From the IMG/VR virus record IMGVR_UViG_3300010882_000012: a stretch of DNA of 64,000 bases; one strand, given 5' to 3'. Position numbers and translations under genes: made by a program. Source of the stretch: a virus. Lineage: Duplodnaviria; Caudoviricetes. Within the stretch, counting starts at the first letter, position 1, and each line of letters starts with the position of its first letter. Shown here one piece after another: positions 38,989-56,857 of the stretch. Below the pieces are notes generated by a model that saw nothing but the letters and a program-made list of their open reading frames with translations, did no database searches and was not told the DNA's origin.

Positions 38989-39621
38989 TTATTCCAACCT
39001 TTTAACTCTGTACCATATTTGCCATTTTCTATTATAGTCTGAACCACTATGTAAATGCTTTGTTAATTTTAATCCGGTTGCAACAATTTCTTTTTCATTT
39101 TGAATATAAATAGAACCTTTTGGAATTATTGCCTCATAAATTCTGTGAGGAAACCAAAGATGTGCTTTTTTATAATCTTCTTTAATAATGTCTTCTATTG
39201 TATTATAAGCATGTAAACCAGATTCAATAGTTGCTTCTACTCTTAAATCATCCACATTAAGATTTTTGCCTACAAGTTTGGCTTCTTTAAAAGAACTATC
39301 AAGTGCCATATTAAGAACTTTCATTTTTACAAAAGCTTTTTCTTCATCTAATTTTGATTTATCATTAGGTATGCAATTAGGACAATTAATTGATTCTTGT
39401 ATCTTAATAGATTTTTGATCATTTTCTAAAGACCATGTTTGAATCTCACACCAAATACTTGAAAATCTTATTTTACCTACTCTGTATCCGCTTCCAGGAT
39501 AATAAGGTCCTTGTAATTTTTCACCTTTTGGATTGTTCGCCACATACTCAATTACTTTGTAACATTTGATATCTTCTGTAGCAATTTTAAATCTTGAATT
39601 TTCTCTTATTGTAAAGCACAT
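38989..39621 (-). CDS. MC-family paralog 1
   Basis: MCF..EDIKCYK..GLHAY..IPKG..EIV. Confidence 0.85.
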   Translation of the reverse strand: MCFTIRENSRFKIATEDIKCYKVIEYVANNPKGEKLQGPYYPGSGYRVGKIRFSSIWCEIQTWSLENDQKSIKIQESINCPNCIPNDKSKLDEEKAFVKMKVLNMALDSSFKEAKLVGKNLNVDDLRVEATIESGLHAYNTIEDIIKEDYKKAHLWFPHRIYEAIIPKGSIYIQNEKEIVATGLKLTKHLHSGSDYNRKWQIWYRVKRLE

Positions 39622-39632
39622 AATATTTTGTT

Positions 39633-40211
39633 TTAAATTTCTTTAATTGGTATCATTTTTGTTGCTGCAATTTCTTTTCTACAAGTAACATAAAGTGCTC
39701 CTTTTGGAATAATACATTCTACTACAACAAAGAAAAAACTAAGTTTTTGAGAAATAGTACATTCTTTCCGTAATTTAGTTTTTCTCCTGTTTGCTTTCCA
39801 CTTTTTCGTAAATCCATGTAAACCGTCCATTACTGCAACATCTTCGAAAAAATCATTCCAAATTGATTCTTTATCAAAATAACGGTCAACTCTAATATTA
39901 TCCTCAAACTTAATTTCACCTTTATTTTTCCAACCTTCACATTTAAAAGTCCTTAATTCTTCATCATAAATGAAAGTTACTGCATCACAAATAAAACCAT
40001 TTAAATATCTTTGCTCTTTACCAAAACTCAATTTAAGATTAGAATTTTTAATATAACCTAAATCCCATTCTTCATCAAAATAAGGCGAAAAATATCCATT
40101 TTTTACTATACCAAAATCATTAAGATCACAAACGCGTTTAAAAACTTTGTAGCAAATAATATCTTCAGTTGCTATCTTAATTTTAGTTCTCTTTTTACAG
40201 TTTAAGCACAT
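39633..40211 (-). CDS. MC-family paralog 2
   Basis: MCL..EDIICYK..SPY..GLHGF..IPKG. Confidence 0.85.
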   Translation of the reverse strand: MCLNCKKRTKIKIATEDIICYKVFKRVCDLNDFGIVKNGYFSPYFDEEWDLGYIKNSNLKLSFGKEQRYLNGFICDAVTFIYDEELRTFKCEGWKNKGEIKFEDNIRVDRYFDKESIWNDFFEDVAVMDGLHGFTKKWKANRRKTKLRKECTISQKLSFFFVVVECIIPKGALYVTCRKEIAATKMIPIKEI

Positions 40212-40212
40212 G

Positions 40213-40300
40213 TTAAAGTTGTTTAATTAATTTTAATTTTGTTGTTACTATTTTACTTTTTCTTTCAATATAAAGTTCTTTCTGTTACAATTAAGCACAT
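40213..40300 (-). pseudogene. internally deleted MC-family remnant
   Basis: MCLIVTERT joined out of frame to LYIERKSKIVTTKLKLIKQL*. Confidence 0.6.
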
Positions 40301-40503
40301 TATTTTCTTTTCTTTTTCTTATTCTTCATATACCAATCATCAAGTCTATTAAAATGAGCTTCATTCTTAAAACATGTCAAATTCAAATCTTGACAAAGAT
40401 TATATGCACTAAAATTATGATCGGAATATTTTGTTTTCTTCCAATGACAATCTCTTTCAATATAGCACTTTTTACATTTTGTTTGATTTAAAATTCTAAT
40501 CAT
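40300..40503 (-). CDS. small Cys-rich protein
   Basis: Tiled ORF. Confidence 0.65.
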   Translation of the reverse strand: MIRILNQTKCKKCYIERDCHWKKTKYSDHNFSAYNLCQDLNLTCFKNEAHFNRLDDWYMKNKKKKRK

Positions 40504-40629
40504 TTGAATAGAAAGAAAAATTAAAGCACATATTGATCCGATTATTAAGAATCCACAAATATAGGCTCCTATTTTATTTGCTAAATCAATTCCAGATAAT
40601 TCAATTGAACATTATAATAATATTATCTC

Positions 40630-40971
40630 TTAATAATATTTTTCAAATATTCGGCACTTTTCTCCATCTGTGCCATTTGTATCATCACCTTTAAGACAAC
40701 AAAATCCTTCATAATCACCAGTATGTGATGGTGTATCAAAGTGTATACATTTTTTACAATTCTTTTGTTTTCTTTTTTCTTCTTTTTCCATGAATCTTAA
40801 TTGCTTTCCATAACCTGGCCAATATTTTAAAAGAAACATGATAACCTTAGGTATTGATCCGGAAACTAATTTTCCTTCAGGGTGTTTACTAGCAAATTTG
40901 ATTACATCATTGTAAAAAATTTGTTCAGAAGTTTTATTCTCTGCTAAGAAAGTAATTAAATAGTGTGTCAT
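40630..40971 (-). CDS. hypothetical protein, Cys-rich C-terminus
   Basis: CKKCIHF. Confidence 0.7.
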   Translation of the reverse strand: MTHYLITFLAENKTSEQIFYNDVIKFASKHPEGKLVSGSIPKVIMFLLKYWPGYGKQLRFMEKEEKRKQKNCKKCIHFDTPSHTGDYEGFCCLKGDDTNGTDGEKCRIFEKYY

Positions 40972-41008
40972 TATCTGATGTGTTTTAAATTATCTGATGT
41001 GTTTTAAA
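40971..41008. repeat. 19-bp perfect tandem duplication
   Basis: TTATCTGATGTGTTTTAAA x2. Confidence 0.9.
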
Positions 41009-41220
41009 TAGTTCCATTTTCTGATCATTATAATCATTGAAATTAAATTAAATATTGGTACAAAAGCCATTACAATAAAAACGGGTTTTACCCATCCTTT
41101 CAACGTCATCGTTTTCGCAGCTTTGCTAATTCCTTCTGGTTTTATGAACATGAAAAGAAAAGTCAAAAATAATGCAATTAAGTAAACTGTCAATAAGAAA
41201 AATCCAATTAATCCTGCCAT
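40990..41220 (-). CDS. small membrane protein
   Basis: Hydrophobic; FVPIFN. Confidence 0.7.
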   Translation of the reverse strand: MAGLIGFFLLTVYLIALFLTFLFMFIKPEGISKAAKTMTLKGWVKPVFIVMAFVPIFNLISMIIMIRKWNYLKHIR

Positions 41221-41223
41221 ATT

Positions 41224-41460
41224 TTAGTTTGTTTCTTGTTTTTCAAGTAGCACATAGCAAAATGAATATGCATCTTTTCTTGCTTCACACTGTCCTATTG
41301 TTCCTGGAGAATTTATTGCTGCACAAGCACTCATGGATTTTACAATCCATCCATTATTCAATAATTGAGATAAAGTATCAAAATCTCTTTCTTCTACTCT
41401 AAGTATTTTTTGTACTATTCTTGATTCTTTTAGTTTTTCTTTTTCCATTTTAATTTTCAA
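41224..41460 (-). CDS. hypothetical protein
   Basis: LLNNGWIV. Confidence 0.65.
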   Translation of the reverse strand: MKIKMEKEKLKESRIVQKILRVEERDFDTLSQLLNNGWIVKSMSACAAINSPGTIGQCEARKDAYSFCYVLLEKQETN

Positions 41461-41824
41461 TTAAAATTCCTGGTATTACTTTTAGTTCTTCAAAAATTTT
41501 ATCTGCATGTTCTTCATCCTCTATGAAATATCCTTGTCTCACTCCATAGGTTTGCAAACTTGTTTTATAATCTTTCCATTTTATCCAAGCATTAATTACT
41601 CGTTGTGCTTCCTTCTCTTCTATAATTGAAATATTTTTACTCGGCATTACAACTGTAACTGAACTAAATGAAAATTTAACATAATTAGCTGGCCCTACTT
41701 CTGAAAATTTCATGTTAGGATTTAAAGTCTTATTATTGAAAGTTTCAATTCTTTCAATTTTGTCAAGGTCGATATAATCACTAATCTGACCTTCACTGTT
41801 TTTAATTGTTAAAATCTGTTTCAT
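41450..41824 (-). CDS. hypothetical protein
   Basis: Start corrected to MKQIL. Confidence 0.7.
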   Translation of the reverse strand: MKQILTIKNSEGQISDYIDLDKIERIETFNNKTLNPNMKFSEVGPANYVKFSFSSVTVVMPSKNISIIEEKEAQRVINAWIKWKDYKTSLQTYGVRQGYFIEDEEHADKIFEELKVIPGILIEN

Positions 41825-41834
41825 ATTTTCTGTT

Positions 41835-42170
41835 TTAAAAATTGAATGTTGCAAAAAGTGGCATTTTACCATAACATGAATTCATTATCATTTTGTAATA
41901 TCCAATTTTTGCTTTTTGTTGTCTAAGTGTAACTTTTTGTGCAATGATAGTCATTAGGTCATCTACATTAGAATTTGGATGTACTGTAATTTCTCCATAA
42001 GAAATATCATCAAACCTAATTTCAACTTTAATAGATTTCTTTTCGGAAGTTGATTCAAGTCTCATCCTTCTTACTATATCATCCCATCTTTCTTTGTCAT
42101 CCTTTTGAAAACTTGCTTCATAACTTTTCGGAGTTCTACAAATACCACCGTAAATTCTTAATGTTGTCAT
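41835..42170 (-). CDS. hypothetical protein ending in PolB motif-B-like KxxxNSxYGK
   Basis: YYKMIMNSCYGK. Confidence 0.7.
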   Translation of the reverse strand: MTTLRIYGGICRTPKSYEASFQKDDKERWDDIVRRMRLESTSEKKSIKVEIRFDDISYGEITVHPNSNVDDLMTIIAQKVTLRQQKAKIGYYKMIMNSCYGKMPLFATFNF

Positions 42171-42184
42171 TATTTTTTAATTTT

Positions 42185-42718
42185 TTATTCTAATTCTTTT
42201 ATTAATTGTATTTTACTTGCTGCTATTAAAAATCCTTTTTGTACTATAATAGAACCTTTTGGAATTACACATTCGCATACAACAAAATGATTCCAGGAAT
42301 AACAACGGGGAATAATTGTATAATTCATCATCCATTTAGCACGCCAAATTTTAGTACAAGCATGTAATCCTTCATTAATTTCAATTTGGCTTAATTTTTT
42401 ATTAGTCAAACTTCTATTATTAGGATGTAAAAATGTAATGGCTTTTTGTTCTCCTTTTGATTCATCAAAAATAGTAGAAAGTTTAATTTTTTCTAATATA
42501 TCCCTCTTGTAACCTTTATCATGAAAAAATTCTAAAACTACTTCTGAAGATTTTTCTTCACCTAATTGCCAATTTGTCATAGTATACCAAGGTGAAATAT
42601 ATTCAAATTTTGATTCAGCACCAAGAACATGCTTTTCTCTTTTAAGAAAAATTTTAAAAACTTTAATATCTTCCTTTGCTATTTGAATTTTAGTTCTTTT
42701 CTTTATTACTAAGCACAT
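42185..42718 (-). CDS. MC-family paralog 3
   Basis: MCL..EDIKVFK..SPWY..GLHAC..IPKG. Confidence 0.85.
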   Translation of the reverse strand: MCLVIKKRTKIQIAKEDIKVFKIFLKREKHVLGAESKFEYISPWYTMTNWQLGEEKSSEVVLEFFHDKGYKRDILEKIKLSTIFDESKGEQKAITFLHPNNRSLTNKKLSQIEINEGLHACTKIWRAKWMMNYTIIPRCYSWNHFVVCECVIPKGSIIVQKGFLIAASKIQLIKELE

Positions 42719-42729
42719 ATTGTTAATTT

Positions 42730-42918
42730 TTAAATTGTAAAACGATATTCTATTAATTCATCTGTTCTTACTCTTCCTTTAGGATGTTTCTTTGTATATT
42801 TGCGATAATTTTTATCATCTAACTTTTTATGAATTTCAAAGTTTGAAAATAACAAAAAACTTAGAACAATTTTAACAAAAAGTAAAACTGTAATTAGTTT
42901 CTTTTTATCTTTTCCCAT
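42730..42918 (-). CDS. small membrane-anchored protein
   Basis: One TM segment. Confidence 0.5.
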   Translation of the reverse strand: MGKDKKKLITVLLFVKIVLSFLLFSNFEIHKKLDDKNYRKYTKKHPKGRVRTDELIEYRFTI

Positions 42919-42931
42919 TTTTCTTTTTGAT

Positions 42932-43381
42932 TTAATTATCTTTTGCATCAATTAATTTAAACATTTGCTGAATACGATATTTAAGACCTTCATAATCCGA
43001 TCTGTTTAATTTTTTCAACTCCCTACAATTTTGTTTTACAACATCCATTAATCTTGTAATACTTTTTTGACGTTCAGAAACTCGCATATTTTGAACCATC
43101 TTAAGATTTAAAGAACCATAAACATAACAAACAATTGGCTCTTTTGAAAATAGATCTTTTTCTGTAACAGTTAAAAAATCGTCTCCATTATAAGGAACTT
43201 TAATTGTGAATGTACTATAGTTGTTGTTCTTGTAAATATTTTTTTCTAATAACGTAATTTCCAATTCTTTATTATGAAGATTGGGATTTTTAATTCCCTC
43301 AATTTCAAGAGACTCAATAGTATTGGCTGGTGTTAAAAAATGGATTTTATCTCCTATTTTTAGTTGGCAAAATTTCTTCAT
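42932..43381 (-). CDS. hypothetical protein
   Basis: Tiled ORF. Confidence 0.75.
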   Translation of the reverse strand: MKKFCQLKIGDKIHFLTPANTIESLEIEGIKNPNLHNKELEITLLEKNIYKNNNYSTFTIKVPYNGDDFLTVTEKDLFSKEPIVCYVYGSLNLKMVQNMRVSERQKSITRLMDVVKQNCRELKKLNRSDYEGLKYRIQQMFKLIDAKDN

Positions 43382-44036
43382 ATAGTTCTAAGTTTTCGAT
43401 TAATTTTAATTGATTGGTTACTACTTCACTTCCATTTTTAACTATTATAGAACCAGCTGGAATAATACCTCGATATAGTTTAAAAGTTCCTTGATATTCT
43501 TTTTCTATTCTTAGATTCCATTCTTTGCAAAGATGTCTTGCCCAACTTTCTTCAACAAAAGCATGTAGTCCTTGATTAATTGCAATACTTTCTAATTTTG
43601 AAGAAACAGACTTTAAAGTTTTTAATCCACTAACATCATTCTTTGATGGTACTTCATCTCCAAAACTTTCTATTGTGTATTCCAATTTGTGAAAGTGTTT
43701 GTTCATGATTTCTTCTAAATTCAATCCGGCTTCATTTTTATCAAGTTGAACTGTTTTAGAAAAGTACTTGTAACTAAAAGTTGTTGGTCCTTCAGGTGGA
43801 TCTTTATGATTACATGTAGATTCTTCTAAAACATGGATGTAATAGGCAATTAATTTTGAATTTCTAACCTTATTTAATTTCCAACAAAATAATGGTTTTC
43901 TATGTGCTGGTGAAACTATTAATTTCTTTCCTTCTTTACCAATATGAAAATCATCAATTTCTTGAACTATTTTAAAAACTTCTCTATCTTGATCCAACAA
44001 AATTACTTTTGTTTCTCTATTACAATCTAAGCACAT
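43347..44036 (-). CDS. MC-family paralog 4
   Basis: MCL..QDREVFK..SP..GLHAF..IPAG..EVV. Confidence 0.85.
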   Translation of the reverse strand: MCLDCNRETKVILLDQDREVFKIVQEIDDFHIGKEGKKLIVSPAHRKPLFCWKLNKVRNSKLIAYYIHVLEESTCNHKDPPEGPTTFSYKYFSKTVQLDKNEAGLNLEEIMNKHFHKLEYTIESFGDEVPSKNDVSGLKTLKSVSSKLESIAINQGLHAFVEESWARHLCKEWNLRIEKEYQGTFKLYRGIIPAGSIIVKNGSEVVTNQLKLIENLELYEEILPTKNRR

Positions 44037-44048
44037 ATTACGAATTTT

Positions 44049-44588
44049 TTAATTTTTACAATCGTTAATATAATCAACATATTGTTTTTCATGTACACCT
44101 ACTATTTTTAATTTTGATGAAACGTAATCTCCTTTTTCATTTCTAATAAAAACAGCACCTTTTGGAATAATAGCATCAAAGAAAACATCACTACTATCAG
44201 TACACATTAAGTCTGATACTCTTTTAAAAGTATCTGAAGAATGAATTCCATCTCTTACCAACTTTCGACATACTTTTGACAAATGTTCATTTGCTAATTT
44301 GACACCCGTTTTAGTAGCTATAACCCGATAAATCCTTTGAAAACCTACTACATCTTTATTCTTTTGCCAATCATCATCATCCTTAAAGTGACTAACACGA
44401 ATTTCAGCTTTATTAGTACTTCCCAATTTCCATGATGTTCCTCTATAAACGGGAGAATACAAAATTTCATGTTCTGAAACCGGAGCTTTTAAAAAAGAAC
44501 ACCATGTTTCTCGAACTAAAAGTTTAACAACCGGAATATCTTCTATTGCGATTTGAAATTTGCTTGATTCTGAAAGTAATAGACACAT
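44049..44588 (-). CDS. MC-family paralog 5
   Basis: MCL..EDIPVVK..SPVY..GIHS..IPKG. Confidence 0.85.
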   Translation of the reverse strand: MCLLLSESSKFQIAIEDIPVVKLLVRETWCSFLKAPVSEHEILYSPVYRGTSWKLGSTNKAEIRVSHFKDDDDWQKNKDVVGFQRIYRVIATKTGVKLANEHLSKVCRKLVRDGIHSSDTFKRVSDLMCTDSSDVFFDAIIPKGAVFIRNEKGDYVSSKLKIVGVHEKQYVDYINDCKN

Positions 44589-44589
44589 C

Positions 44590-44907
44590 TTAATTTCTCC
44601 TATTATTAATTGTTGTTAAATTTGTTACAGTCCATATATGAATATCTTCCTCTATACAATCGCGGCTTTTTTCATTAAGCAATATTGTAATCTGTTTTCT
44701 TAAAACTTCAAGTAATTCATGTTCAACATATTTTGAACTACATGTAACCGTAATTTCAAATCTTCCATTTGGATAATTGCCTGAACACAAGTAACAAAAT
44801 TGTGATGGTTTTCCAAGTTGTACCGTTGTTCCTAAAATAATAAAATTAAGAAAAGAAAACAACGTAGCAAAACTAACTAAAATTATCATAACTGTAAAAA
44901 AGTTCAT
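44590..44907 (-). CDS. membrane-anchored hypothetical protein
   Basis: N-terminal TM segment. Confidence 0.7.
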   Translation of the reverse strand: MNFFTVMIILVSFATLFSFLNFIILGTTVQLGKPSQFCYLCSGNYPNGRFEITVTCSSKYVEHELLEVLRKQITILLNEKSRDCIEEDIHIWTVTNLTTINNRRN

Positions 44908-44926
44908 ATTTCTAAAATTTTAAGGT

Positions 44927-45159
44927 TTAACATTTTAAGCATCCAGAACCACTATAATTTCCACAACTATGGTAAGTAATTCCTAAGTAATTTTCATAAT
45001 AATCATTACAACATCCAGAACAATTTTCTTCTTCATCTTCATTTTCTAAATCTCTTACCGGTTTTACAGATTCTTTACATTTTGGACAATAAAAAAGTTG
45101 GTGCAATTTCATTATTAAGTTCAGTACCACACATTGGACAAAAGTACAATTTTTTTCAT
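44927..45159 (-). pseudogene. double Zn-ribbon gene broken by two homopolymer +1 insertions (or sequencing errors)
   Basis: Removing one base from each run gives MKKLYFCPMCGTELNNEIAPTFYCPKCKES. Confidence 0.55.
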
Positions 45160-45181
45160 ATCTTTAAATTTTGATTGATTA

Positions 45182-45592
45182 CTAAATTTCAATTGTTTCC
45201 ATACACCAAATTCTAATATCAGGACAACGATCAAGATCGAAAATTAACCTTTTACGATTTCTGTTTACATCATAACCTTGAAATTCATGATAATCTTCTA
45301 TGAAATATCCGGCATATTGAAAATTAGTACGATTAAGTCCATTGTAAACAGCAAGTAAAAATCTGTTAGGTCCTGAAAGTGAATTTTCATACACTTTTTT
45401 ATCCAAAGTATTTTGGTGTACAAAATATTGTGGAAATTCGGTTTTCCATCTACGATAAATCCTTGTTTTAATGTAATCCAAAAACTGAAACCAATTAAGA
45501 TTAGAAACAAAGTCTAATGCTTCTTTTCCTTCGAGATTGATTGCTATTTCATGTTCTTCTGATGTTAACTCTTTGTTGCAAGATTTTTCCAT
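45182..45592 (-). CDS. hypothetical protein
   Basis: First gene after promoter. Confidence 0.75.
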   Translation of the reverse strand: MEKSCNKELTSEEHEIAINLEGKEALDFVSNLNWFQFLDYIKTRIYRRWKTEFPQYFVHQNTLDKKVYENSLSGPNRFLLAVYNGLNRTNFQYAGYFIEDYHEFQGYDVNRNRKRLIFDLDRCPDIRIWCMETIEI

Positions 45593-45616
45593 TTCTGTAA
45601 TTTTGATTTATACTGT

Positions 45617-45673
45617 AAAAATAACATTTTTTTCTTTACTAAAAATCAAAAACAAGAAAAAGTTACTAACAAT
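45617..45673 (-). promoter_or_regulatory. Class-1 promoter
   Basis: Motif plus box. Confidence 0.78.
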
Positions 45674-45740
45674 CTATTGAGCATACAATTCTAATGAATA
45701 CCAATCAATCCCTTCAAATTCATGTTTAATATCTTCCATT

Positions 45741-46073
45741 CTAAAACTTCTTTATTAAAAATCTTTCAAATTTGTTTTTACTTCTTTTAGCTCTTGGTTT
45801 TCTCTTTATTAAGAACTCTTTATCATCATAAAACCAATTTTCAAAAAGTTCTTCTTTTAAAATTAATATCATTAATATAAAAACAAAAATTGCTAAGATA
45901 TTAATAACAGGAATCAAACAAGTAATTAAAACTAAAAGATAAAACCAAATGGGAAATTTAAAATTAATTGTAGTTTTTTCTTTCTTGTTTTCTAATATGA
46001 AACATCTTTTGTAAATCCAAAAGCAAACAATAAAAAGTAGTAGAGTAATTAAAAAGCTAATTAAAAATTTCAT
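45741..46073 (-). CDS. membrane protein
   Basis: TM segments; LIPVIN. Confidence 0.7.
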   Translation of the reverse strand: MKFLISFLITLLLFIVCFWIYKRCFILENKKEKTTINFKFPIWFYLLVLITCLIPVINILAIFVFILMILILKEELFENWFYDDKEFLIKRKPRAKRSKNKFERFLIKKF

Positions 46074-46666
46074 TATTCATCATCTCCTTCCTCTTCTTCG
46101 TCTTCATTAAGGAAAACAATTGTAACTTCAACTATTTCAGTATTTTCATCAATCATTACATAACAATAATAACTTCCATCTCCTATTCCCGATCTTGAAA
46201 CAACACCATGTGGAATTACACCAGCACCAGGTTCCAATAAAGTTATATCACAACAATGACCATACCATTGTTCTTCTAAATTTTCTTCATCTTCATGACC
46301 ACGGTAAAAATTACACTTTTTATCAAAAACTGAACCATCTTTGTAATATTGACTATCAAAAATTCCAGCTTGTCCAGAATCTACACCCACATCAAAATTA
46401 GCAAGTTTCATCTGTAATCCACCTTCGGGACAATTATGTCCATTTGATGCGTTTGTTTTTAAAGACTCAGATAAATGTTTTGCACTAAGAATCCAAATTC
46501 TTTCACCCCAATCTCCATATTCAGCTTTTTCAATTTCAGCTATCCATGTTCCTTTTTTCACATTTTCTAAAACGCCTCTACACCAAACATCTTTAGCATA
46601 ACATGGATCAGAAATATCAAAATTTCCCGACACACATTCAAAAGTTCCTAAGTTAATAGTTTTCAT
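46073..46666 (-). CDS. DUF4241-like protein
   Basis: ISDPCY, GVDSGQAGIFD, SGIGDGSY. Confidence 0.7.
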   Translation of the reverse strand: MKTINLGTFECVSGNFDISDPCYAKDVWCRGVLENVKKGTWIAEIEKAEYGDWGERIWILSAKHLSESLKTNASNGHNCPEGGLQMKLANFDVGVDSGQAGIFDSQYYKDGSVFDKKCNFYRGHEDEENLEEQWYGHCCDITLLEPGAGVIPHGVVSRSGIGDGSYYCYVMIDENTEIVEVTIVFLNEDEEEEGDDE

Positions 46667-46681
46667 TATAATATCAATTTT

Positions 46682-47686: not shown

Positions 47687-48265
47687 TTAGTAGTTTGCTA
47701 TTATGATATCTGCTCTTTTTACTTTCAATTCTTGAAGGATTTGAGAATCTATCCTCTTTTGAATTTTTTCTTCTGACAAGTTAGGATTTCTTTTCTTAAT
47801 TCGTTCTATTCTAACCTCTAACGGCGCATCTACAACAATTACTTTATCAAAAAGTTTATCATGTCCTGCTTCAAAAAGTATAGCACTTTCAAAAAGTACG
47901 TATGGAACTTTATCCATCCATTTTCCATATTTTGAACCTCCTCTATCGCCTGTTCTAAATTCTCTGTATGTTTGACACCAATTTTCAAACTTTTGCATGA
48001 CTATTGGATGTAGAAACTTTTCTAGAGCTTTTTTCTTAACATCATCATTAAAGATAATTGTAGCCAAATTAGGAAATGAAACTTGTCCATTTTGGTAAGT
48101 TTGTTCTCCAAAATTTTTAATAACCCATTGTTTTACAGTACTTTCATCATACAATTTCTTGCATTCATCATCTGCATAAAAAACCGGAATTCCCATCTCT
48201 ATGAACTGTTTTGAGATGTAGGTTTTACCAACTCCAATTCCTCCTGTAATTGCAACTTTTTTCAT
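47687..48265 (-). CDS. coaE: dephospho-CoA kinase
   Basis: VAITGGIGVGKT, YAD, LHP, ESAILFE, RIERIKKR. Confidence 0.92.
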   Translation of the reverse strand: MKKVAITGGIGVGKTYISKQFIEMGIPVFYADDECKKLYDESTVKQWVIKNFGEQTYQNGQVSFPNLATIIFNDDVKKKALEKFLHPIVMQKFENWCQTYREFRTGDRGGSKYGKWMDKVPYVLFESAILFEAGHDKLFDKVIVVDAPLEVRIERIKKRNPNLSEEKIQKRIDSQILQELKVKRADIIIANY

Positions 48266-48963: not shown

Positions 48964-49617
48964 TCAGGAAATTCTGTCCAGTGTTCCATTATTGTTTACT
49001 TTATATTTTTTACAACTGTCACAATCTTCTATTAAACTTCTATCATAACCTTTCCAATTTGGACAATTTTCAAAATTTTTCTGTGCTAATTTTTTCTTAA
49101 ACTTGCGTAATCTTTTACGATCAAATATTTTTAAAAAATTATGGATAAAATTAAAAGTAGATAAATATCTTGGTCCAATTACAATTAATTCATTAGAAAC
49201 AATTTCACTTTTATCATTAGTAACATAGTATGCACCTTTTGGGATGTAAGCTAAGTGCATCTCTATATCTGACCAAATTCTATTGACTGGATTTGTATAA
49301 GCATGCAAACCTTGAAAAATTTCACATTCTGTAACAATTTCAATTCCTGGTCTTTCCATTTCTAAGAATGGTCTATCATTTAATAGATGATTAATTTTAA
49401 TGCTTTTAATTTCTTTAGCTGATTCTCTATTGAAAATAGCTTCCATTTCTGCTACAACTTTTTCTCCATAAGTGTAATCAAAATGTTGATATGGAGAACG
49501 TCCTTCTCCTTTTGGAATATCTTTACCTTGAAAATAACCGGTTGCTAACTGTTTGTAGACAATAATATCTTCTTTAGCATACGTGTATCTTGAATTTTTT
49601 GAACAATTAAAGCACAT
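48964..49617 (-). CDS. MC-family paralog 6
   Basis: MCF..EDIIVYK..SPY..GLHAY..IPKG..EIVS. Confidence 0.85.
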   Translation of the reverse strand: MCFNCSKNSRYTYAKEDIIVYKQLATGYFQGKDIPKGEGRSPYQHFDYTYGEKVVAEMEAIFNRESAKEIKSIKINHLLNDRPFLEMERPGIEIVTECEIFQGLHAYTNPVNRIWSDIEMHLAYIPKGAYYVTNDKSEIVSNELIVIGPRYLSTFNFIHNFLKIFDRKRLRKFKKKLAQKNFENCPNWKGYDRSLIEDCDSCKKYKVNNNGTLDRIS

Positions 49618-49882
49618 CTTCTGTTTCTATTTTGTTAAACAATTGAAAATTACAAAAAGTACAAGCTAAAGTAAAAGCTATTGTACCTCCTAAAATTACC
49701 CATCCGATGTAAGTAAAGTAAGTTGGTAAAGCATTGATAAACCATTTCCATGCTATATCAAAACTACAATAATACCAATCTATTAAAAATCCTAATCCTC
49801 CTATTACAATTAGATTTACTAAGCAAATTAAAACAGTTACAATAAGACTCATTACAAAATTTTCTACTAAAATCTTTTTCAT
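49607..49882 (-). CDS. membrane protein
   Basis: Two TM helices. Confidence 0.7.
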   Translation of the reverse strand: MKKILVENFVMSLIVTVLICLVNLIVIGGLGFLIDWYYCSFDIAWKWFINALPTYFTYIGWVILGGTIAFTLACTFCNFQLFNKIETEDVL

Positions 49883-49896
49883 TTCAATCTCCTTTC

Positions 49897-50259
49897 TTAC
49901 TTTGCAAGTTCATACTTACCTTGACTATTCTTTACCAAAAATCTTGGTTCTTTTCTAGATGGTCCCATTAAAGTACCTGGTTTGTATTCTCTATTAAAGT
50001 ATGATTCTGATTTAGACCAATCGGGTTTATCAGAAAAATAACTAGAATAATAACCACGAGTTGCATACTTTTCAATTCCTTGATTGTATGAAACTCCATG
50101 TTTTACTGCCATCATAAACTCTTTGAGTTCAGTCCAGTTCATTGGTCTATTCATAGATTCACAAAAATCCATTACTACAGATTTTAAAGAAACTTTGTTT
50201 TCTCTCATGTAATTCCTGATATCACTCCAGGTATTGAGATAACTGTAATCTTTTTTCAT
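49897..50259 (-). CDS. putative winged-helix-like protein related to repeats in 18894..20159
   Basis: MNWTELKEFM...SYFS...KEPRFLV. Confidence 0.7.
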   Translation of the reverse strand: MKKDYSYLNTWSDIRNYMRENKVSLKSVVMDFCESMNRPMNWTELKEFMMAVKHGVSYNQGIEKYATRGYYSSYFSDKPDWSKSESYFNREYKPGTLMGPSRKEPRFLVKNSQGKYELAK

Positions 50260-50287
50260 ATCTTTTTTTAAATTTTGATTGATTTTT

Positions 50288-50698
50288 TTACTTGTTGTTA
50301 AATTTCATGTATGCCGCTAAAGCATCCGGAAAATTTGGTCCGCTATAGTGCATAATAGTTTCTTTTACATCATCTTCATTTTTTGCACAACGGTTAACAT
50401 AGAACCGATGATAAAATGGCGAAAAAAGTAATTCCACATATTGACCATATCCTGCCATTGAACAAACTTGCATTTTGTAGTTTTGGATATCTTCATTCAT
50501 TTGATCCACAACTTTTTGATAAGTTGTATCATCTTTCCACTGAGAACAAAAAGCCATTACAGCCCAAGCTGATTCCTTCGAAATTGAACCATCAAAATGA
50601 AGATGTTCCACTCGTGTTTCAGCAATTAAGTTATTAATTGATTTTTCACGATTTGCTTTAATTTTTTGACCGATAGTCATTGTTTCTTGATTTTCCAT
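50288..50698 (-). CDS. hypothetical protein
   Basis: First gene after promoter. Confidence 0.75.
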   Translation of the reverse strand: MENQETMTIGQKIKANREKSINNLIAETRVEHLHFDGSISKESAWAVMAFCSQWKDDTTYQKVVDQMNEDIQNYKMQVCSMAGYGQYVELLFSPFYHRFYVNRCAKNEDDVKETIMHYSGPNFPDALAAYMKFNNK

Positions 50699-50733
50699 TG
50701 ATTTGAATTTTGATTAATTAATTTTGATACTGT

Positions 50734-50790
50734 AAAAATACCGCTTTTTTCTTTACGATGTGTTCTTAAATGAAAAAAGTTACTAACAAT
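50734..50790 (-). promoter_or_regulatory. Class-1 promoter
   Basis: Motif plus box. Confidence 0.8.
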
Positions 50791-51009
50791 TTAACTATTG
50801 AATTTTCTTGCTAATTCTCTTTGTCTTTTTCTTCTTTGACTCTTCCATGCTAATTCAGCAATAACTGTTCCATAAAGTTCTTCTGCACAACTTTCAATCA
50901 TACTACGAGTTGAATTAAATTCTTGATATCCTCTTGAATCTTTTGCAATACACTCTTTTAGATTAAAGTTAAAAGCTCTTCGTAAATTTTTTAATAGTCT
51001 AATTTTCAT
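50791..51009 (-). CDS. small basic protein
   Basis: MKIRLLKNLRR. Confidence 0.65.
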   Translation of the reverse strand: MKIRLLKNLRRAFNFNLKECIAKDSRGYQEFNSTRSMIESCAEELYGTVIAELAWKSQRRKRQRELARKFNS

Positions 51010-51246
51010 CTTGTATTAATTTAATAATTTCATTAATTGAATTTTGTAAAGCTTCTACATGTTCTTTAGTAAAAATAATTTTTTTCTAAAGTCAATTTTG
51101 TGTGAACATCACTATTAATCATAATTCCTGATGTATTATCTGCAACAATCCATCTTTCTATCATTGTAACAGTATTTTGAACCGGACCAAGTTTGTTCCT
51201 AAGCATTGCTTCTAATGTCTCTTTTTCCATATCTAAAATTTTTTAT

Positions 51247-51317
51247 AAAAATACTGAATTTTCTGTTACTAAATTACAATAAAAAGAAAAAGTTACTAAC
51301 AATTTTCATGTAGTAAC
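51247..51317 (-). promoter_or_regulatory. Class-1 promoter with hairpin extension
   Basis: Motif 51287-51303. Confidence 0.78.
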
Positions 51318-51373
51318 TCTTCCCAATCAAAATTCAAAAAGCCGGAGTTATCAATTCCGGTTTGCGAGTAATC

Positions 51374-51577
51374 TTAGTATGCTTGGTATCCCAAACTTTT
51401 TAGTAATTCAACTTGACAATTTGCGGCAAAAATAGCAAAATGTTCAACTGTTTCTTTTGGTAAAAATTTTACCATTGCTTGCATTTTTGGATCTACTTTA
51501 TCTAAAGCAACTTCTGTAGCTTTTAGAATTTGTTCATGATACTTGATGTAAATTGGATCTTTGTAAAGCTCTTCCAT
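51374..51577 (-). CDS. hypothetical protein
   Basis: Tiled ORF. Confidence 0.7.
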   Translation of the reverse strand: MEELYKDPIYIKYHEQILKATEVALDKVDPKMQAMVKFLPKETVEHFAIFAANCQVELLKSLGYQAY

Positions 51578-51752
51578 AATTTTAAATTTTACCAGTAATC
51601 TTCACCAAAATAATCATCAATAATATCTTCAATATACCTTTCATCTTCTCCAAATTCGGCTGCAACTTCTTCAATTGCCATTTCTTTGTCATAACATTGA
51701 TTTTCCATCAAGTCTTCGAACATTTCAATAATTTCTTGATCCATATCTTAAT

Positions 51753-52010
51753 TTAATTAGTTAATCGTTGTAATACTAAAAATCCATTTTCTCCATAGTA
51801 TTCCTTTACAATATCTTCCATACTTTTGTTTTCTTCCTCATAATTACCATGTACTTGATGTAAATAGTCATCAAATTTGATAATATCAATTACAATTCTT
51901 TTAAAAGCTACAGTAAGTAATCCATCATAAAATGGTTGTATTGAACATTTAAAAGCATCTTCAAAATCTTTTCTTACTTTAGACCATTCTCCTATTTTGT
52001 AATAACTCAT
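51753..52010 (-). CDS. hypothetical phage protein
   Basis: IDIIKFDDYL...SMEDIV...YG. Confidence 0.7.
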   Translation of the reverse strand: MSYYKIGEWSKVRKDFEDAFKCSIQPFYDGLLTVAFKRIVIDIIKFDDYLHQVHGNYEEENKSMEDIVKEYYGENGFLVLQRLTN

Positions 52011-52207
52011 GATTTTTCAATTTTAACATTTTCTTCTAATTCTAAGATAAAAAGTAAAGCATTTTTCGCGCCTATCAATTGATAGTAAATCATATCTTCA
52101 GATTTAGAATACTCAATTCCTTTAAATAATTCTCTATTTTTCTCTATTGCTTCAAGATGATCTGTAATTTGTTTTAAGACATCTTCTGTTTTTGATTCTG
52201 TTCTCAT
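52007..52207 (-). CDS. hypothetical protein
   Basis: Tiled ORF. Confidence 0.65.
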   Translation of the reverse strand: MRTESKTEDVLKQITDHLEAIEKNRELFKGIEYSKSEDMIYYQLIGAKNALLFILELEENVKIEKS

Positions 52208-52364
52208 AATACTAAAAGTAAAATTGGTTAACTATTGTATCTGTATCAATTTTCGTAACATAAAGCACAAACTTCTGAATTTTTTCTATCTTTTCTGAAA
52301 TTTTGCAAACTATTAAAAAAGTTGCATAAAGTACTCTTGTCATTATTTTGAATTTTGATATTAC

Positions 52365-52421
52365 AAAAATACCAAAAAATTCAATACTAAAGTTTAATCT
52401 ACTTCAAAAGTTACTAACAAT
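52365..52421 (-). promoter_or_regulatory. Class-1 promoter
   Basis: Motif plus box. Confidence 0.78.
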
Positions 52422-52423
52422 TT

Positions 52424-52789
52424 TTACTCTTCCTCTTCTAACTCTTCTTTCCAGGTATTCAAAAAATCAATTCTAGGTTGATACCATTTTTCAGGATCTG
52501 TAGTTGCAATTTTTTGATCATACCAAAAATAATGACCATTTGCATTAAACTGATTTTCAATTATTCCTTCAGATTCTGCTCTTTCAAAAAAATCTTCTTG
52601 AAACTGATTAATAATTTCAATTTCCATTCCATCTTCAATTTCTGGTAATAAATGACAAAGACCTTTGTTTGCTTCCATGTAACTTATTATTCCATACTCA
52701 TTTACTCTTTCATGATATAATTTGATTTTTTCATCAATTCTTTCAAGTAAGAAGTCAATAATTTCAATTTTTTCTATTGTTGTTATCAT
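52424..52789 (-). CDS. WxxxRx[ED]FL family paralog
   Basis: GLCHLL...WYQPRIDFLNTWKEELE. Confidence 0.75.
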   Translation of the reverse strand: MITTIEKIEIIDFLLERIDEKIKLYHERVNEYGIISYMEANKGLCHLLPEIEDGMEIEIINQFQEDFFERAESEGIIENQFNANGHYFWYDQKIATTDPEKWYQPRIDFLNTWKEELEEEE

Positions 52790-52832
52790 AGTATTATAGT
52801 ATTAAGTACAACTTGTTAAATCTCCTAAAGTA

Positions 52833-53378
52833 TCAAGAAAAAAACATCTTTCCAGACGGTTCATTTTGTGGTAATTCTGGGCTAGTATAGTAAACTACTT
52901 CTTTAACAATTAGATAGTTTGAAACATACTGATTAAAGTTTTCGATGTAAATACTACCCTTTGGAATGATCGCAATACAATTAACTTCTGGCCACCATGG
53001 CTTCATCCATTCTCCATTATTCATTCTTTTTAAATGACCTTTTGTTCCAATTTTGTAACTGTGTAATCCTTCTGTAACTGAAAGAGAATAATCAGGTTTT
53101 TCTATCCATTCATTAATGAATTCATTAAGAACTTTAATTTTATCTTTTGTGATTTCTGAATACTCATCATATGTTCGCCCATACATTTTAGCATCAATAG
53201 TAATTCTAGAACCATAAAGTTTTCCTAATTCGTAATTCATGTTTTGAAATGGTGACACAAAATTTGTTACACCTTCCATAGCGTGACAATTTTCGATATT
53301 TCTTGATAATTGCTTAAGAACTATGATATCTTTTTTCGCAATTTTAAATTTTGATTTTAATCCTACTTGAAAGCACAT
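52833..53378 (-). CDS. MC-family paralog 7
   Basis: MCF..KDIIVLK..SPF..GLHSY..IPKG. Confidence 0.85.
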   Translation of the reverse strand: MCFQVGLKSKFKIAKKDIIVLKQLSRNIENCHAMEGVTNFVSPFQNMNYELGKLYGSRITIDAKMYGRTYDEYSEITKDKIKVLNEFINEWIEKPDYSLSVTEGLHSYKIGTKGHLKRMNNGEWMKPWWPEVNCIAIIPKGSIYIENFNQYVSNYLIVKEVVYYTSPELPQNEPSGKMFFS

Positions 53379-53382
53379 GTTA

Positions 53383-53877
53383 TTATTTTTGAATTCTTTT
53401 AACCATTTTCATCTGTGTTGCAACTATCTCACCCGCCATCCAATTTTTCAAGTAAACAGAACCTTTTGGAATTATCATTTTAAAAACTTTGTGTTTTTTA
53501 GAATTACTATTAAAAACCCATACATTACTTTTTGCTCTTAATTTTCCAGTATAAGCATGTAATCCTTGATGTGCTTGTATTGAATTAAAATCTTTGTAGT
53601 AATTCCCAAAAAATTCAGAAATTGTAGTAGACTCTTTAATTTTAGATTTATCAAATTCATGAATTGTACCACTTAAATTTCCTATTCCAATTTTAGATTC
53701 TTTAATTTGATTTACTTCCCATTTAAAATCTCCTGCAAAAGAATAAGGTGACCTTGGAACTATTGGAGAACTGTCTAAATTTCTAATCCTAGAACATTCT
53801 ACACACAATACTTTGTAGACTGTAATATCTTTTTTAGCAATTCTAATTTTGCTTTTGTTTCTTAAAGTAAGACACAT
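53383..53877 (-). CDS. MC-family paralog 8
   Basis: MCL..KDITVYK..SPY..GLHAY..IPKG..EIV. Confidence 0.85.
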   Translation of the reverse strand: MCLTLRNKSKIRIAKKDITVYKVLCVECSRIRNLDSSPIVPRSPYSFAGDFKWEVNQIKESKIGIGNLSGTIHEFDKSKIKESTTISEFFGNYYKDFNSIQAHQGLHAYTGKLRAKSNVWVFNSNSKKHKVFKMIIPKGSVYLKNWMAGEIVATQMKMVKRIQK

Positions 53878-53892
53878 TATTGTTAGTTTTAA

Positions 53893-54099
53893 TTAATCTT
53901 TTACTGTAAATTGTTCTTCTATTTCAGATTTGCAAACAGGACATCTAAATTTTATTGTGTATTGCCAACTTGCTTCCATTGTTCTAAAACTTTTTAATGA
54001 TATGCACTCTTCAAATTCTGCATCAAGTCCAGTACTACATTGAAAACATTGCAATTTAAACTGTTTTTGATGAAATGGAGATTTTTTAGTTATTGTCAT
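53893..54099 (-). CDS. Zn-ribbon protein
   Basis: CFQC...CPVC. Confidence 0.7.
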   Translation of the reverse strand: MTITKKSPFHQKQFKLQCFQCSTGLDAEFEECISLKSFRTMEASWQYTIKFRCPVCKSEIEEQFTVKD

Positions 54100-54361
54100 T
54101 TTTCTTTAATTTTCTTCTTTTCTTAATTTCTGTACTCAACCAAAACAGTCCTTCTATTGCATTTCCCCAAATCCATAGCATTCCGCAAATTACCATCATC
54201 AAAAAACTCTTTCCCCAAATCAATTGAGCCCAACTATTATCGGGAGGATTGTATGCAAAATCTTCTTTTAGTATTCCTAATACTACACTAAAAATGAAAA
54301 AAATTATTGTAAATCCTATTGTTATTATTCCAAAAAGTTTTGTCCAAGTCATCTCTTTCAT
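54086..54361 (-). CDS. membrane protein
   Basis: Two TM helices. Confidence 0.7.
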   Translation of the reverse strand: MKEMTWTKLFGIITIGFTIIFFIFSVVLGILKEDFAYNPPDNSWAQLIWGKSFLMMVICGMLWIWGNAIEGLFWLSTEIKKRRKLKKNDNN

Positions 54362-54648
54362 TTTAGTTTTGGTTTTTCAATTGTTTCTAATTTCCAACAT
54401 GATGTTAAAGAATCTCCAACTGCTACATTGTTGTAAGTTTTGTTTCCTGTACTTATCCAACTTCCATCATTTGCAACCACAATACAATAGTGCACTGTTC
54501 TTGTTTGTACCATTTTTAAACTAACATTGTAGTATCTTTCTCTTTTCTTAAAATCATACTTACTTGCAACCATCTTAGTTTGTTTTTCACAACAAGATGA
54601 AAACAAAACTACAATAACTATTAAGAAAATTGTTAAAATCTTTTTCAT
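54358..54648 (-). CDS. putative lipoprotein
   Basis: MKKIL...FSSC lipobox. Confidence 0.7.
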   Translation of the reverse strand: MKKILTIFLIVIVVLFSSCCEKQTKMVASKYDFKKRERYYNVSLKMVQTRTVHYCIVVANDGSWISTGNKTYNNVAVGDSLTSCWKLETIEKPKLK

Positions 54649-55077
54649 TATTTTTCAATTTTAATTAGTTTAAGAAATCTTGTCAATTTGTTGTTTCTAA
54701 AGTTTTTCTTTTTAGCTTCAATGACAAAAAGTATTACACAAACTAACAAAGCTCCAACATTAAAAGATGGAATTAAACAAGCAACAAAAGAATACTATAA
54801 AAAGAAATTAGTCCATTTTACTATTGCATTAAAAACAGAAATAATGATAAGACAAATCAAAATGATAAAAACATGTAATCCAACCATAACTTTATTCTCC
54901 TATCATTATTTTTAATGTTCTTACCACAATTAGGACAACAAACATTGTATTCTTTAATTCGTTCTTAATTAAATCCACCATGTACTTTGGTATAAGAAGA
55001 TTCATCAAAACTCAAGTATTCATGAACTTTTTCACAGTGTTCACATTTAATGTAACAGTGATCATTAAATTTTGTCA

Positions 55078-55275
55078 TTATTTTAGTATTATGATTTCTT
55101 TTTGTTTTTCTATCAACTCAGTAATTTTTTCATCTATGGTTTCATAATCAACCCATAGTTCATATCTATCCCAACTAACACATTCAATTTCTGTTTGTTC
55201 AACTCCTATCCTTGCGGCTTCTTTCAATAAAGCAACTAACTCTTCTTTTGAAAATTTGAAAATCATCTCTTCCAT
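55078..55275 (-). CDS. hypothetical protein
   Basis: Tiled ORF. Confidence 0.65.
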   Translation of the reverse strand: MEEMIFKFSKEELVALLKEAARIGVEQTEIECVSWDRYELWVDYETIDEKITELIEKQKEIIILK

Positions 55276-55458
55276 TATTCTTTATCTTCTTCAAACTTAA
55301 ATCTCTTGTATTCTAAATCTGAACATTTGATGTTAATTTTAATATCTTCATTATTACAATTTTTACGGCGTTCTACATCAGTTTTGTAATACTTAACTCG
55401 TCCACCTTCTGAAACAAGTTTAAACACGATTTTAGTTCTTAGCATATCTTTTTGAATT

Positions 55459-56214
55459 TTAACAGTCTACGTAATCATTCCATAATTGATTTGCACTTGT
55501 AGCCTCGCTAGAAACTTGATTATCCCAAACAGGATAAAGTGTCCAACCATTTGAACTTTTCTTGATAATAATTTTATCACAAAATAGTTCTGGATCGTAT
55601 TCTCTTCTACCATTTTTGGTTGTCATTTTCATCCAAGTTAAATACTGTCTTCCATGACTCTGCACAAATTGTTTCCAAACTTCTTGCTTAAACTCTTCGG
55701 GATTAAGTTTGAGATATCTTCCATAATCTGTAATACCACCACAAAGCCCTATACCAAGATAAGACTCATTAAAAGTTTGCTTTCCTTCGTAAGTACCTTC
55801 AAAGTCAATAATTTCGTAAAGTATTGCAAGATCCGCTTCTATTGCACTATCATAAACTGAAACTTTTGTCTCATACAATTTTCCATTACACTTTGGACAA
55901 ACTCCTGTGATTATCGGTTTTTCAAACCAAATTCTACCATCTCCATTACAATGTTCACATTTTACTTTGCACATTTGCATTTTTCCAAATGCTTTCTTTT
56001 CTTTCTTGATGTAACCTTTAGCATCACATTCTGGACAAGGTTTGAAAATTTCAAAAGTTTTTCCTATGCACTCTTCGGTTATTCTATCATTATGTGCGAT
56101 GTAGGTACATCCACATCTTTTAGTAGCTCCAACTTCACTGTAAGTAATTTTTCCTGTTTTAGGATCTCTACTTAATCTCGATGTTGTCAGTTTGTTTAAT
56201 TGTTCTTGTGTCAT
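55459..56214 (-). CDS. DnaJ-type CxxCxGxG zinc-finger protein
   Basis: CPECDAKG, CEHCNGDG, CPKCNGK. Confidence 0.75.
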   Translation of the reverse strand: MTQEQLNKLTTSRLSRDPKTGKITYSEVGATKRCGCTYIAHNDRITEECIGKTFEIFKPCPECDAKGYIKKEKKAFGKMQMCKVKCEHCNGDGRIWFEKPIITGVCPKCNGKLYETKVSVYDSAIEADLAILYEIIDFEGTYEGKQTFNESYLGIGLCGGITDYGRYLKLNPEEFKQEVWKQFVQSHGRQYLTWMKMTTKNGRREYDPELFCDKIIIKKSSNGWTLYPVWDNQVSSEATSANQLWNDYVDC

Positions 56215-56235
56215 TTGATTGAATTTTGATAATAC

Positions 56236-56292
56236 AAAAATACCAAAAATACTGATACAAAACTATAATTTTGAAAAAAAATTACTAACAAT
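56236..56292 (-). promoter_or_regulatory. Class-1 promoter (one mismatch)
   Basis: ATTGTTAGTAATTTTTT plus box at fixed spacing. Confidence 0.72.
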
Positions 56293-56857
56293 TAAAATGG
56301 GATAATTTTTCTTTCAGTATTAATTGAGTACTAACTATTTCTAAATTTGGTAAAATTGTTTGTTGCTCTTTGATGTAAAAAGCACCTTTTGGAATAATGG
56401 CTTTAAAAACATAATGCCAATATTGATTATCTATCCAATCCATTGCATAATGTTCTGCATGTCTTTTATCTGCAAAACTATGTAATCCAGCATTTACTCT
56501 AAATTCTAAAACTTTTTCTGAACTACCCACCCAATTTCTCCAATATTCTTTAAATTCTATTCCGTCATTAGTTTCTAGAAACTTAGTTTCTTCAAGTATG
56601 AATCTACGCAATTTTTCATCATCATGAGTAAAAAGTTTGTAAAAAGAATTTCCACAAATTTTTTCTATACCCATTATTGAATTTTCTTCAATAACAGTAG
56701 CACACATATCTACTTGATAAAGTTTGTCTAAGTCCCAAATCATCTTTTTGTAGATAGGAGAATGAAATTTTTCTATCTTTTTAGTAAGTACTTTAAAAAC
56801 TTCAATATCTTCTTTTGCTACTCGAATTAAAGTACTACCATTTGCATACAGACACAT
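56285..56857 (-). CDS. MC-family paralog 9
   Basis: MCL..EDIEVFK..SPIY..GLHSF..IPKG..EIVS. Confidence 0.85.
   Translation of the reverse strand: MCLYANGSTLIRVAKEDIEVFKVLTKKIEKFHSPIYKKMIWDLDKLYQVDMCATVIEENSIMGIEKICGNSFYKLFTHDDEKLRRFILEETKFLETNDGIEFKEYWRNWVGSSEKVLEFRVNAGLHSFADKRHAEHYAMDWIDNQYWHYVFKAIIPKGAFYIKEQQTILPNLEIVSTQLILKEKLSHFNC

Follow-up and report, generated by a model that had tools for sequence, protein, structure and literature searches.

The catalytic residues of R-S-E-class ADP-ribosyltransferases (ARTs) follow the pattern [YFL]-R, then [YF]-x-S-T-[SQT], then [QE]-x-E; iota toxin keeps 1% activity with R295K and none with E380D, and region F of the ART toxins is a variable, substrate-recognising segment (PMC3000352). 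BC2332 is placed in SCOP d.166.1.6, and BC2332-like and CC0527-like proteins are families of the SCOP ADP-ribosylation fold (PMC3000352). Phage T4 is a precedent for several ARTs in a single phage (PMC7824862). The subject of this analysis is a family of nine paralogous genes for proteins beginning with Met-Cys, carried in a window of 64,000 nucleotides, by which is meant the whole stretch of DNA analysed. The window is the last 64 kb of the 146-kb IMG/VR virus record IMGVR_UViG_3300010882_000012 (Duplodnaviria; Caudoviricetes), which CheckV estimates to be about 56% complete. The family is predicted to have an ART-like fold with an unusual candidate ligand site, and in other phages, as here, its genes lie near genes for the synthesis of nicotinamide adenine dinucleotide (NAD+).

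The nine paralogs and the family at large

A nine-member Met-Cys paralog family had been proposed in an earlier note made from the sequence, and the list of open reading frames (ORFs) holds all nine genes where they had been placed, each on the minus strand. They are given here with the remains of a tenth copy.

38989-39621, minus strand: paralog 1, 210 amino acids (aa); Lys-to-His spacing 115; phrog_13450; profile match at E 1.2e-57
39633-40211, minus strand: paralog 2, 192 aa; in tandem with paralog 1; profile match at E 1.6e-60
40212-40298, minus strand: relic of a tenth copy, recognised by three-frame translation and a weak profile match
42185-42718, minus strand: paralog 3, 177 aa; Leu in the candidate Glu column; profile match at E 8.5e-59
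43347-44036, minus strand: paralog 4, 229 aa; longest insert, with a Lys-to-His spacing of 136; IPAG replaces IPKG
44049-44588, minus strand: paralog 5, 179 aa; in tandem with paralog 4; Asp in the candidate Glu column
48964-49617, minus strand: paralog 6, 217 aa; most divergent copy; profile match at E 1.6e-34
52833-53378, minus strand: paralog 7, 181 aa; Gln in the candidate Glu column
53383-53877, minus strand: paralog 8, 164 aa; shortest copy and the paralog modelled
56285-56857, minus strand: paralog 9, 190 aa; longer loop between IPKG and the candidate Glu

That these genes form one family was borne out by alignment, clustering and profile search alike. In a full-length MAFFT alignment the members were 23-29% identical to the first member, and M1, C2, D17, K22, P39, G135, H137, I166, P167 and G169 (numbered by the member at 38989-39621) were invariant in all nine. 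All-against-all BLASTP of 164 minus-strand ORFs (E<=1e-3) gathered the nine into one cluster with no other member. A profile built from the nine copies found exactly nine intact copies in the 146-kb virus record, at E values from 1.6e-60 to 1.6e-34. In paralog 6 the C-terminus is prolonged by about 45 aa, Cys among them.

A tenth, weak profile match (40207-40500, E 7.4e-4, 4 stops) overlaps the relic, which adjoins paralog 2 directly upstream. There, 8 N-terminal codons (MCLIVTER) are fused out of frame to about 21 C-terminal codons with a family-type C-terminus (..KIVTTKLKLIKQL, then stop), and the whole middle is deleted. The presence of an internally deleted tenth copy indicates that the family turns over by gene birth and death. 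A tree of 149 sequences did not settle whether an expansion confined to this lineage produced the nine.

PHROG 13450 ('unknown function') matched all nine members (best E 1.6e-11), and a profile search of 1.84 billion representatives returned 5,626 clusters at 50% identity with E<=1e-3, 530 of them at E<=1e-10. These relatives are usually 120-140 aa long and almost all without a name, the few source labels reading simply 'hypothetical protein', and none of the 120 listed had a precomputed Pfam domain. No meaningful family for the members was found in Pfam, NCBIfam or PADLOC, the ESM Atlas returned unnamed viral clusters only, and literature searches on the family, including the terms DUF7666 and phrog_13450, found no paper. 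A search for longer, fused forms yielded four proteins, none with a Pfam domain. Arrays of 5-13 family matches occur in other large phages, in IMG/VR records 73-355 kb long, and the copies often follow one another without a gene-sized gap. Pairing of toxin and immunity genes was considered and rejected: no recurrent partner gene stands beside the paralogs, and the arrays elsewhere lack gene-sized gaps. A lipoprotein was likewise rejected, as no signal peptide precedes Cys2. We conclude that all nine are genuine genes of one very large family of small phage proteins, cytoplasmic and without a name, within which they diverged long ago.

Across the 149 sequences M1, C2, K22 and P137 were 100% conserved, A14, D17, P44, G105, H107, I136, G139 and Y142 were at least 90% conserved, and an aromatic column (95% Tyr or Trp) lies about 22 residues past the Lys. 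The hypervariable middle noticed earlier is real and is confined to one site. The Lys-to-His spacing is 83-136 in the window copies, and in 120 relatives its median is 53 (range 37-84); the His-to-Pro spacing is alike, at 26-37 versus 27. All of the extra length is therefore a single insert, placed between the Lys strand and the GLH strand. It amounts to 30-83 additional residues in each window copy, unrelated between copies. In the relatives P0216 and P0226 (about 195-201 aa) an extra Cys-rich segment of about 80 aa lies elsewhere, between the Lys strand and the S-P motif, so that the family tolerates insertions in more than one loop. The least secure element of the proposed motif set was E[IV][VA]: its Glu is present in six of the nine window copies and gives way to Asp, Gln and Leu once each, and over the 149 sequences the column is 59% Glu, 11% Asp and 11% Ser.

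By profile comparison, the family can be placed as a distant branch of the DUF7666 superfamily. The family profile (A3) was aligned by hhalign to 19 domains like that of ES18 gp53 over 83 columns (92% probability, E 6.8e-7), and the A3 hidden Markov model (HMM) matched the DUF7666 member L157 at E 1.5e-5. The gathering threshold of Pfam DUF7666 (PF24703; 27 bits) was not reached, with none of the nine matching at E<=1; the Pfam model matched nowhere in the virus record and touched 6 of 144 relatives weakly (best E 1e-4). Structure matches in BFVD were to eight uncharacterised phage proteins at E<1e-3, followed by weaker matches to DUF7666 and DUF4116 proteins. Members of DUF7666, for example the N-terminal domain of Salmonella phage ES18 gp53 (PHROG 4433), share with the family an aromatic-Lys strand, x-G, G-[LF]-H, P-x-x-S-x-[YF] and a final amphipathic strand, and both are early or accessory phage genes. 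Peculiar to the family are a further N-terminal strand with MC, the IIPKG motif and, in place of the D-x-K of DUF7666, a Glu that is frequent. The His of DUF7666 has Cys residues on either side, which the family lacks, and the variability of the family resides in an internal insert instead of a C-terminal repeat rod.

Predicted fold and candidate site

Structures were predicted with AlphaFold2 for paralog 8 (149 sequences; model m0e7c7faa4fa7; predicted local distance difference test, pLDDT, 88.2; predicted template modelling score, pTM, 0.84) and for the 121-aa relative P0018 (pLDDT 91.6, pTM 0.84). Foldseek against the PDB returned noise for both models (TM about 0.15). When 48,161 PDB representatives were searched with VIA-align, the top 50 matches of both models were exclusively ART-fold chains. 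The first three, each with its two VIA-align values, were as follows.

BC2332 (2aua): 6.8 and 5.3
Arr (9iaf): 5.9 and 4.5
Tpt1/KptA (9ld3): 5.2 and 4.9

Further matches included diphtheria and pertussis toxins, TreX, TreTu, Tne2, Tse6, PARPs, DarT, scabin, pierisin, Vip2, C3, RES, MbcT and CC0527. The split beta-sheet of the ART fold (SCOP d.166) was present in the predicted models. The models resemble the ART fold specifically, and the resemblance is probably one of true topological equivalence. The ART-like fold that the earlier note had proposed from motif order is upheld, in that both predicted structures resemble ART-fold chains alone.

Sequence searches gave no such signal. Pfam hits for the 9 and 144 members at E<=1 included no ART family, no HHpred-style search having been aimed at ART profiles, and a sequence-profile search of the PDB returned no ART, its matches being chance 'IPKG' matches to EVH1 and Tpz1 only. 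Viral relatives of PARP were sought for an hhalign alignment and none was found.

In the predicted arrangement, about 120 aa would make up the core, a split beta-sandwich that is compact and of ART type. On the [YF]-K strand, the invariant Lys would occupy the position of the NAD+-binding Arg or His of ARTs, and the G-[LF]-H-[SA] strand with the helix that follows would correspond to the cleft-lining strand of region 2. The I-P-K-G..Y hairpin and the subsequent E-x-V-S strand would close the cleft.

Residues were mapped onto known ARTs from the offsets of the first aligned residues in each structure match. By this measure the invariant Lys of both models falls on triad position 1, which we take to be R9 in pertussis toxin, R7 in LT, H862 in PARP1, H887 in PARP10, H1031 in TNKS2, H440 in exotoxin A, H460 in cholix and R77 in scabin. 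The GLH strand is followed by a helix, resembling the strand-plus-helix of ART region 2. Catalytic-acid offsets from PARPs and C2/C3-type toxins fall near the family Glu, and those from Arr, diphtheria toxin, pertussis toxin and LT fall on the preceding strand, which ends in IIPKG. In the family IPKG lies before the Glu; the similar motif of C3 and iota toxins lies after ExE. The offset of the Lys also coincides with H19 of Arr-ms, a residue confirmed in the published description (PMC6092378).

Arr (2hw2, 9iaf, 9iba) and BC2332 (2aua) are similar in size to the family core, at 120-145 aa, and no sequence relationship of either to the family is detectable. After beta-1, Arr has a loop in which the motif S-N-[YF] is conserved (PMC6092378), and the family has S-P-[YF] at a similar distance past the Lys. 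The catalytic set of Arr is H19, Y49 and D84; the set conserved in the family is Lys, an aromatic residue and His, with no invariant acid. In R-S-E toxins and in the Alt/ModA/ModB-type ARTs of T4, strand 1 carries [YF] followed by a basic residue, as in the family. The spacing from Lys to region 2 in short family members (about 45-53) resembles the Arg-to-STS spacing of R-S-E ARTs, which also have a variable segment between regions 1 and 2.

The earlier note had likened the motif order to that of Vip2/C3-type enzymes, and this assignment failed at each of the three R-S-E motifs. In place of the [YFL]-R of region 1 the family has Lys in 149/149 sequences, in place of [YF]-x-S-T-[SQT] in region 2 it has G-[LF]-H-[SA]-[YF], and in place of [QE]-x-E in region 3 it has a single Glu column with no conserved residue two positions earlier. 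With all three motifs absent, the family is not a Vip2/C3-type enzyme. Nor does it belong to the H-Y-E clade of PARP, diphtheria toxin and Arr: Lys-[VIL] replaces His-Gly, and no acid is invariant. Judged from these residues, the chemistry cannot be canonical R-S-E or H-Y-E catalysis, and if the proteins are catalytic at all their chemistry is new. The site may consist of Lys, His and Tyr with a facultative Glu, in which case some copies may be binders and not enzymes; the window copies with Asp, Gln or Leu in the Glu column are candidates for this role.

The whole family might instead be non-catalytic, the ART-like core serving as a scaffold without a nucleotide ligand, its conserved residues being structural and its variable insert blocking different host proteins in the manner of stoichiometric anti-defence or takeover inhibitors. 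The absence of an invariant acid, the E, D, Q and L found in the Glu column within one window and the hypervariable insert of every copy all suit such a scaffold, as does the joining of DUF7666 head domains to repeat rods, an architecture typical of binding proteins (DUF4116 and pentapeptide proteins in BFVD). We regard this account as somewhat doubtful. The invariant polar Lys, His and Asp and the near-invariant Tyr, kept over thousands of clusters, fit a ligand or active site better than packing, and the scaffold leaves the repeated linkage to NAD+ operons, described below, without explanation.

The invariant Cys2 admits another chemistry, unrelated to NAD+. Exposed as the N-terminal residue after removal of Met, it could act with His107, and possibly Asp17, as a hydrolase or transferase dyad or triad, or as a catalytic metal site. 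Conservation in the stand-alone members (M1-C2 in 149/149, His in 147/149, Asp in 140/149) is as such a site would have it, and the C-termini of DUF7666 and RIIB proteins carry C-x-x-G-[LF]-H-x-C, which resembles a metal site around the same His. The idea is nonetheless very unlikely to be right: Lys, G-x-H and IPxG are retained in copies of the domain that have no Cys2, namely the internal repeats of P0053 and the domain at the C-terminus of P0271. DUF7666 is also without it, and Cys2 is therefore an accessory of this branch, dispensable for the fold. A four-ligand zinc site was rejected, as the partly Cys columns 20 and 134 do not co-vary.

NAD+ genes and the proposed function

A second line of evidence that points to NAD+, besides the fold, is gene neighbourhood. 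The window carries the following genes of NAD+ and related metabolism.

30535-33955, minus strand: NAD+ module of PncA-like, NadE and NAMPT-like genes, assigned with Pfam; 5 kb from the nearest paralog
20161-21432: PARP
58701-59660: Adps/PRPP-synthetase-like protein
47687-48265, minus strand: dephospho-CoA-kinase-like protein (CoaE), E 3.7e-35
61721-62215, minus strand: cytidylyltransferase-like protein (PF01467), E 2e-19

From its sequence, the product of 61721-62215 could be PPAT or a nicotinamide mononucleotide or nicotinic acid mononucleotide adenylyltransferase; together with the CoaE-like protein it suggests either that the phage completes coenzyme A or that it has a further NAD+ step. 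A role for the family as glutaminase partner of NadE was rejected on grounds of size and fold.

An association with NAD+ genes, suggested earlier from this one locus, proved stronger than could then be known, the same neighbourhood being present in other phages. Of the 36 other family-bearing records that were searched, 16 had a NAMPT-like gene (PF04095), as did 7 of the 11 records that were at least 90% complete; from that gene to the nearest family copy the median distance was 4.5 kb. This proximity was significant over 12 records (p = 3e-4, and p = 1.4e-3 without the best case) by Monte-Carlo placement and Fisher's method, with look-alikes removed and without a genome-size-matched control. 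The PncA, NadE and NAMPT trio occurs in three different gene orders, in the window and in two jumbo phages, G003 and G005. In G003 one strand carries, in this order, NadE, PncA, a GIY-YIG endonuclease, NAMPT, a short gap, a family copy and then more copies; in G005 it is NadE, PncA, an ORF, a family copy, an ORF and NAMPT. In other lineages, too, NadE, PncA or NAMPT is no more than 10 kb away from a family copy. The homing endonuclease of G003 (GIY-YIG/NUMOD3, L160:7103-7735) is inserted between PncA and the NAMPT-like gene.

Two independent lines, fold and gene neighbourhood, therefore link the family to NAD+. The function that we propose, with about even confidence, is that of diversified ART-fold effectors that bind NAD+ or a ligand derived from ADP-ribose (ADPR) at the Lys/His/Tyr cleft and use the insert for target choice. 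In each paralog the conserved cleft would take up NAD+ or an ADPR-derived molecule, and the paralog's own insert, which lies between regions 1 and 2 at the position of region F, would engage a different host partner. The set would serve as diversified early effectors in host takeover or anti-defence and would draw on, or feed, the NAD+ supply of the phage (PncA, NadE, the NAMPT-like and Adps-like proteins and PARP). In this proposal the membership of the family, the conservation of its motifs, the place of the insert, the likeness of the predicted fold and the linkage of the genes are what the analysis showed; the ligand, the catalysis, the targets and the role of Cys2 are what we infer.

Several observations weigh against it. 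Searches by sequence or profile in Pfam, NCBIfam, PADLOC and the PDB gave no link to ARTs. The canonical catalytic residues are missing, with Lys standing for Arg or His; no acidic residue is invariant in the C-terminal half, and the candidate Glu is 59% conserved and aligns to a Lys in DUF7666. The strand to which the catalytic acid is assigned varies with the ART match, two strands being indicated. Some records in the linkage analysis are related to one another, and accessory genes cluster in phage genomes in any case, so that the distance statistic overstates independence.

The same neighbourhoods raise the possibility that the proteins act on small molecules, sequestering or cleaving NAD+-derived immune signals or products (ADPR, 2'- and 3'-cyclic ADPR, His-ADPR) and thereby feeding the adjacent pathway of NAD+ rebuilding, by analogy with the phage RyDEP proteins. 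Small phage enzymes that degrade cyclic ADPR signals and fuel NARP1 are a precedent (PMC13232231). The G005 copy between PncA and NAMPT and the G003 copy directly after NAMPT are placed as this would lead one to expect, and the ART fold binds ADPR moieties, a Tpt1-ADPR complex (9ld3) being among the top three matches. We nevertheless consider it unlikely, since nine paralogs with unrelated inserts of 30-80 aa are better suited to protein targets than to a few small molecules, and no search run gave any similarity to RyR-domain, Tad1 or Tad2 sponges.

Genome setting and wider kinship

The window is AT-rich (25-37% GC), no tRNA genes were found in it, and megablast of a 20-kb region against deposited phage genomes returned no match. 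A protein of 571 aa at 15015-16730 (minus strand) carries a Por_Secre_tail domain (E 4.9e-12), the C-terminal sorting domain of type IX secretion, which points to a Bacteroidota host. A scan for sigma-70 promoters and terminators did no better than on shuffled sequences and defined no transcription units. The genome looks compositionally mosaic: from 14000 to 37000, where the PARP and NAD+ genes lie, GC is 33-37% and GC skew nearly absent, and in the flanks, which include the paralog region, GC is 25-31% and the skew strongly negative, at -0.2 to -0.39. Directly downstream of paralog 9, the product of a gene at 55459-56214 (minus strand), 251 aa long, has a zinc-finger region of the DnaJ type, CXXCXGXG, and no J domain was detected in it, and a DUF4241 protein (46073-46666, minus strand; E 1.2e-9) lies inside the paralog-bearing block. 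Five other small groups of minus-strand paralogs are present, at 535/18433/28497/30132, 11427/29292/62801, 38168/61179, 8657/52424 and 2604/18894.

A likeness to the C-terminal domain of T4 RIIB (about residues 200-312) was also observed, in a shared motif order of W/Y-K, S-P-G, C-S-x-G-L-H-V-C, h-P-R-D and a K-M-R-x-C strand; RIIB differs in having an N-terminal helix-turn-helix, the sole part that Pfam covers. The motif order was seen by eye and in low-stringency hhalign comparisons (T4 rIIB L046:1469-1807; L047-L078, L162-L193). With hhalign, RIIB against DUF7666 was marginal (P 0.003-0.005), and RIIB against the family directly gave P values of 0.056 and 0.13 with a probability of at most about 1%. 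The RIIB HMM matched a DUF7666 member at E 0.0015 in a database of 310 sequences, and RIIB models stood at ranks 30, 35 and 44 in BFVD. On these alignments, kinship with RIIB is a weakly supported lead only. A broader conjecture, which we think decidedly unlikely, is that the family, DUF7666 and the RIIB C-terminal domain form one unrecognised ART-fold clade with a Lys/His/Tyr site, acting on NAD+- or ADPR-derived immune molecules and coupled to the rebuilding of NAD+. In stand-alone members of such a clade, the 1,2-aminothiol of the N-terminal Cys could even trap ADP-ribose in its aldehyde form.

Among phage protein families without a name this one ranks with the larger, having more than 5,600 clusters at 50% identity; it recurs in arrays in many jumbo phages, yet has neither a Pfam model of its own nor a paper. 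The ART-like fold and the linkage to NAD+ operons turn a 'hypothetical' family into a concrete hypothesis, namely of effectors that depend on NAD+ or ADPR and have a non-canonical Lys/His site. If the proteins are enzymes, they would extend known ART chemistry and supply a large set of modifiers, each specific for its target. If they act by binding or degrade signals, they would add to the means by which phages counter NAD+-based immunity. Should the clade that includes RIIB prove true, thousands of early phage genes now called 'hypothetical', and the rII locus with them, would gain a testable biochemical handle, and the kinship would bear on a 70-year-old question.

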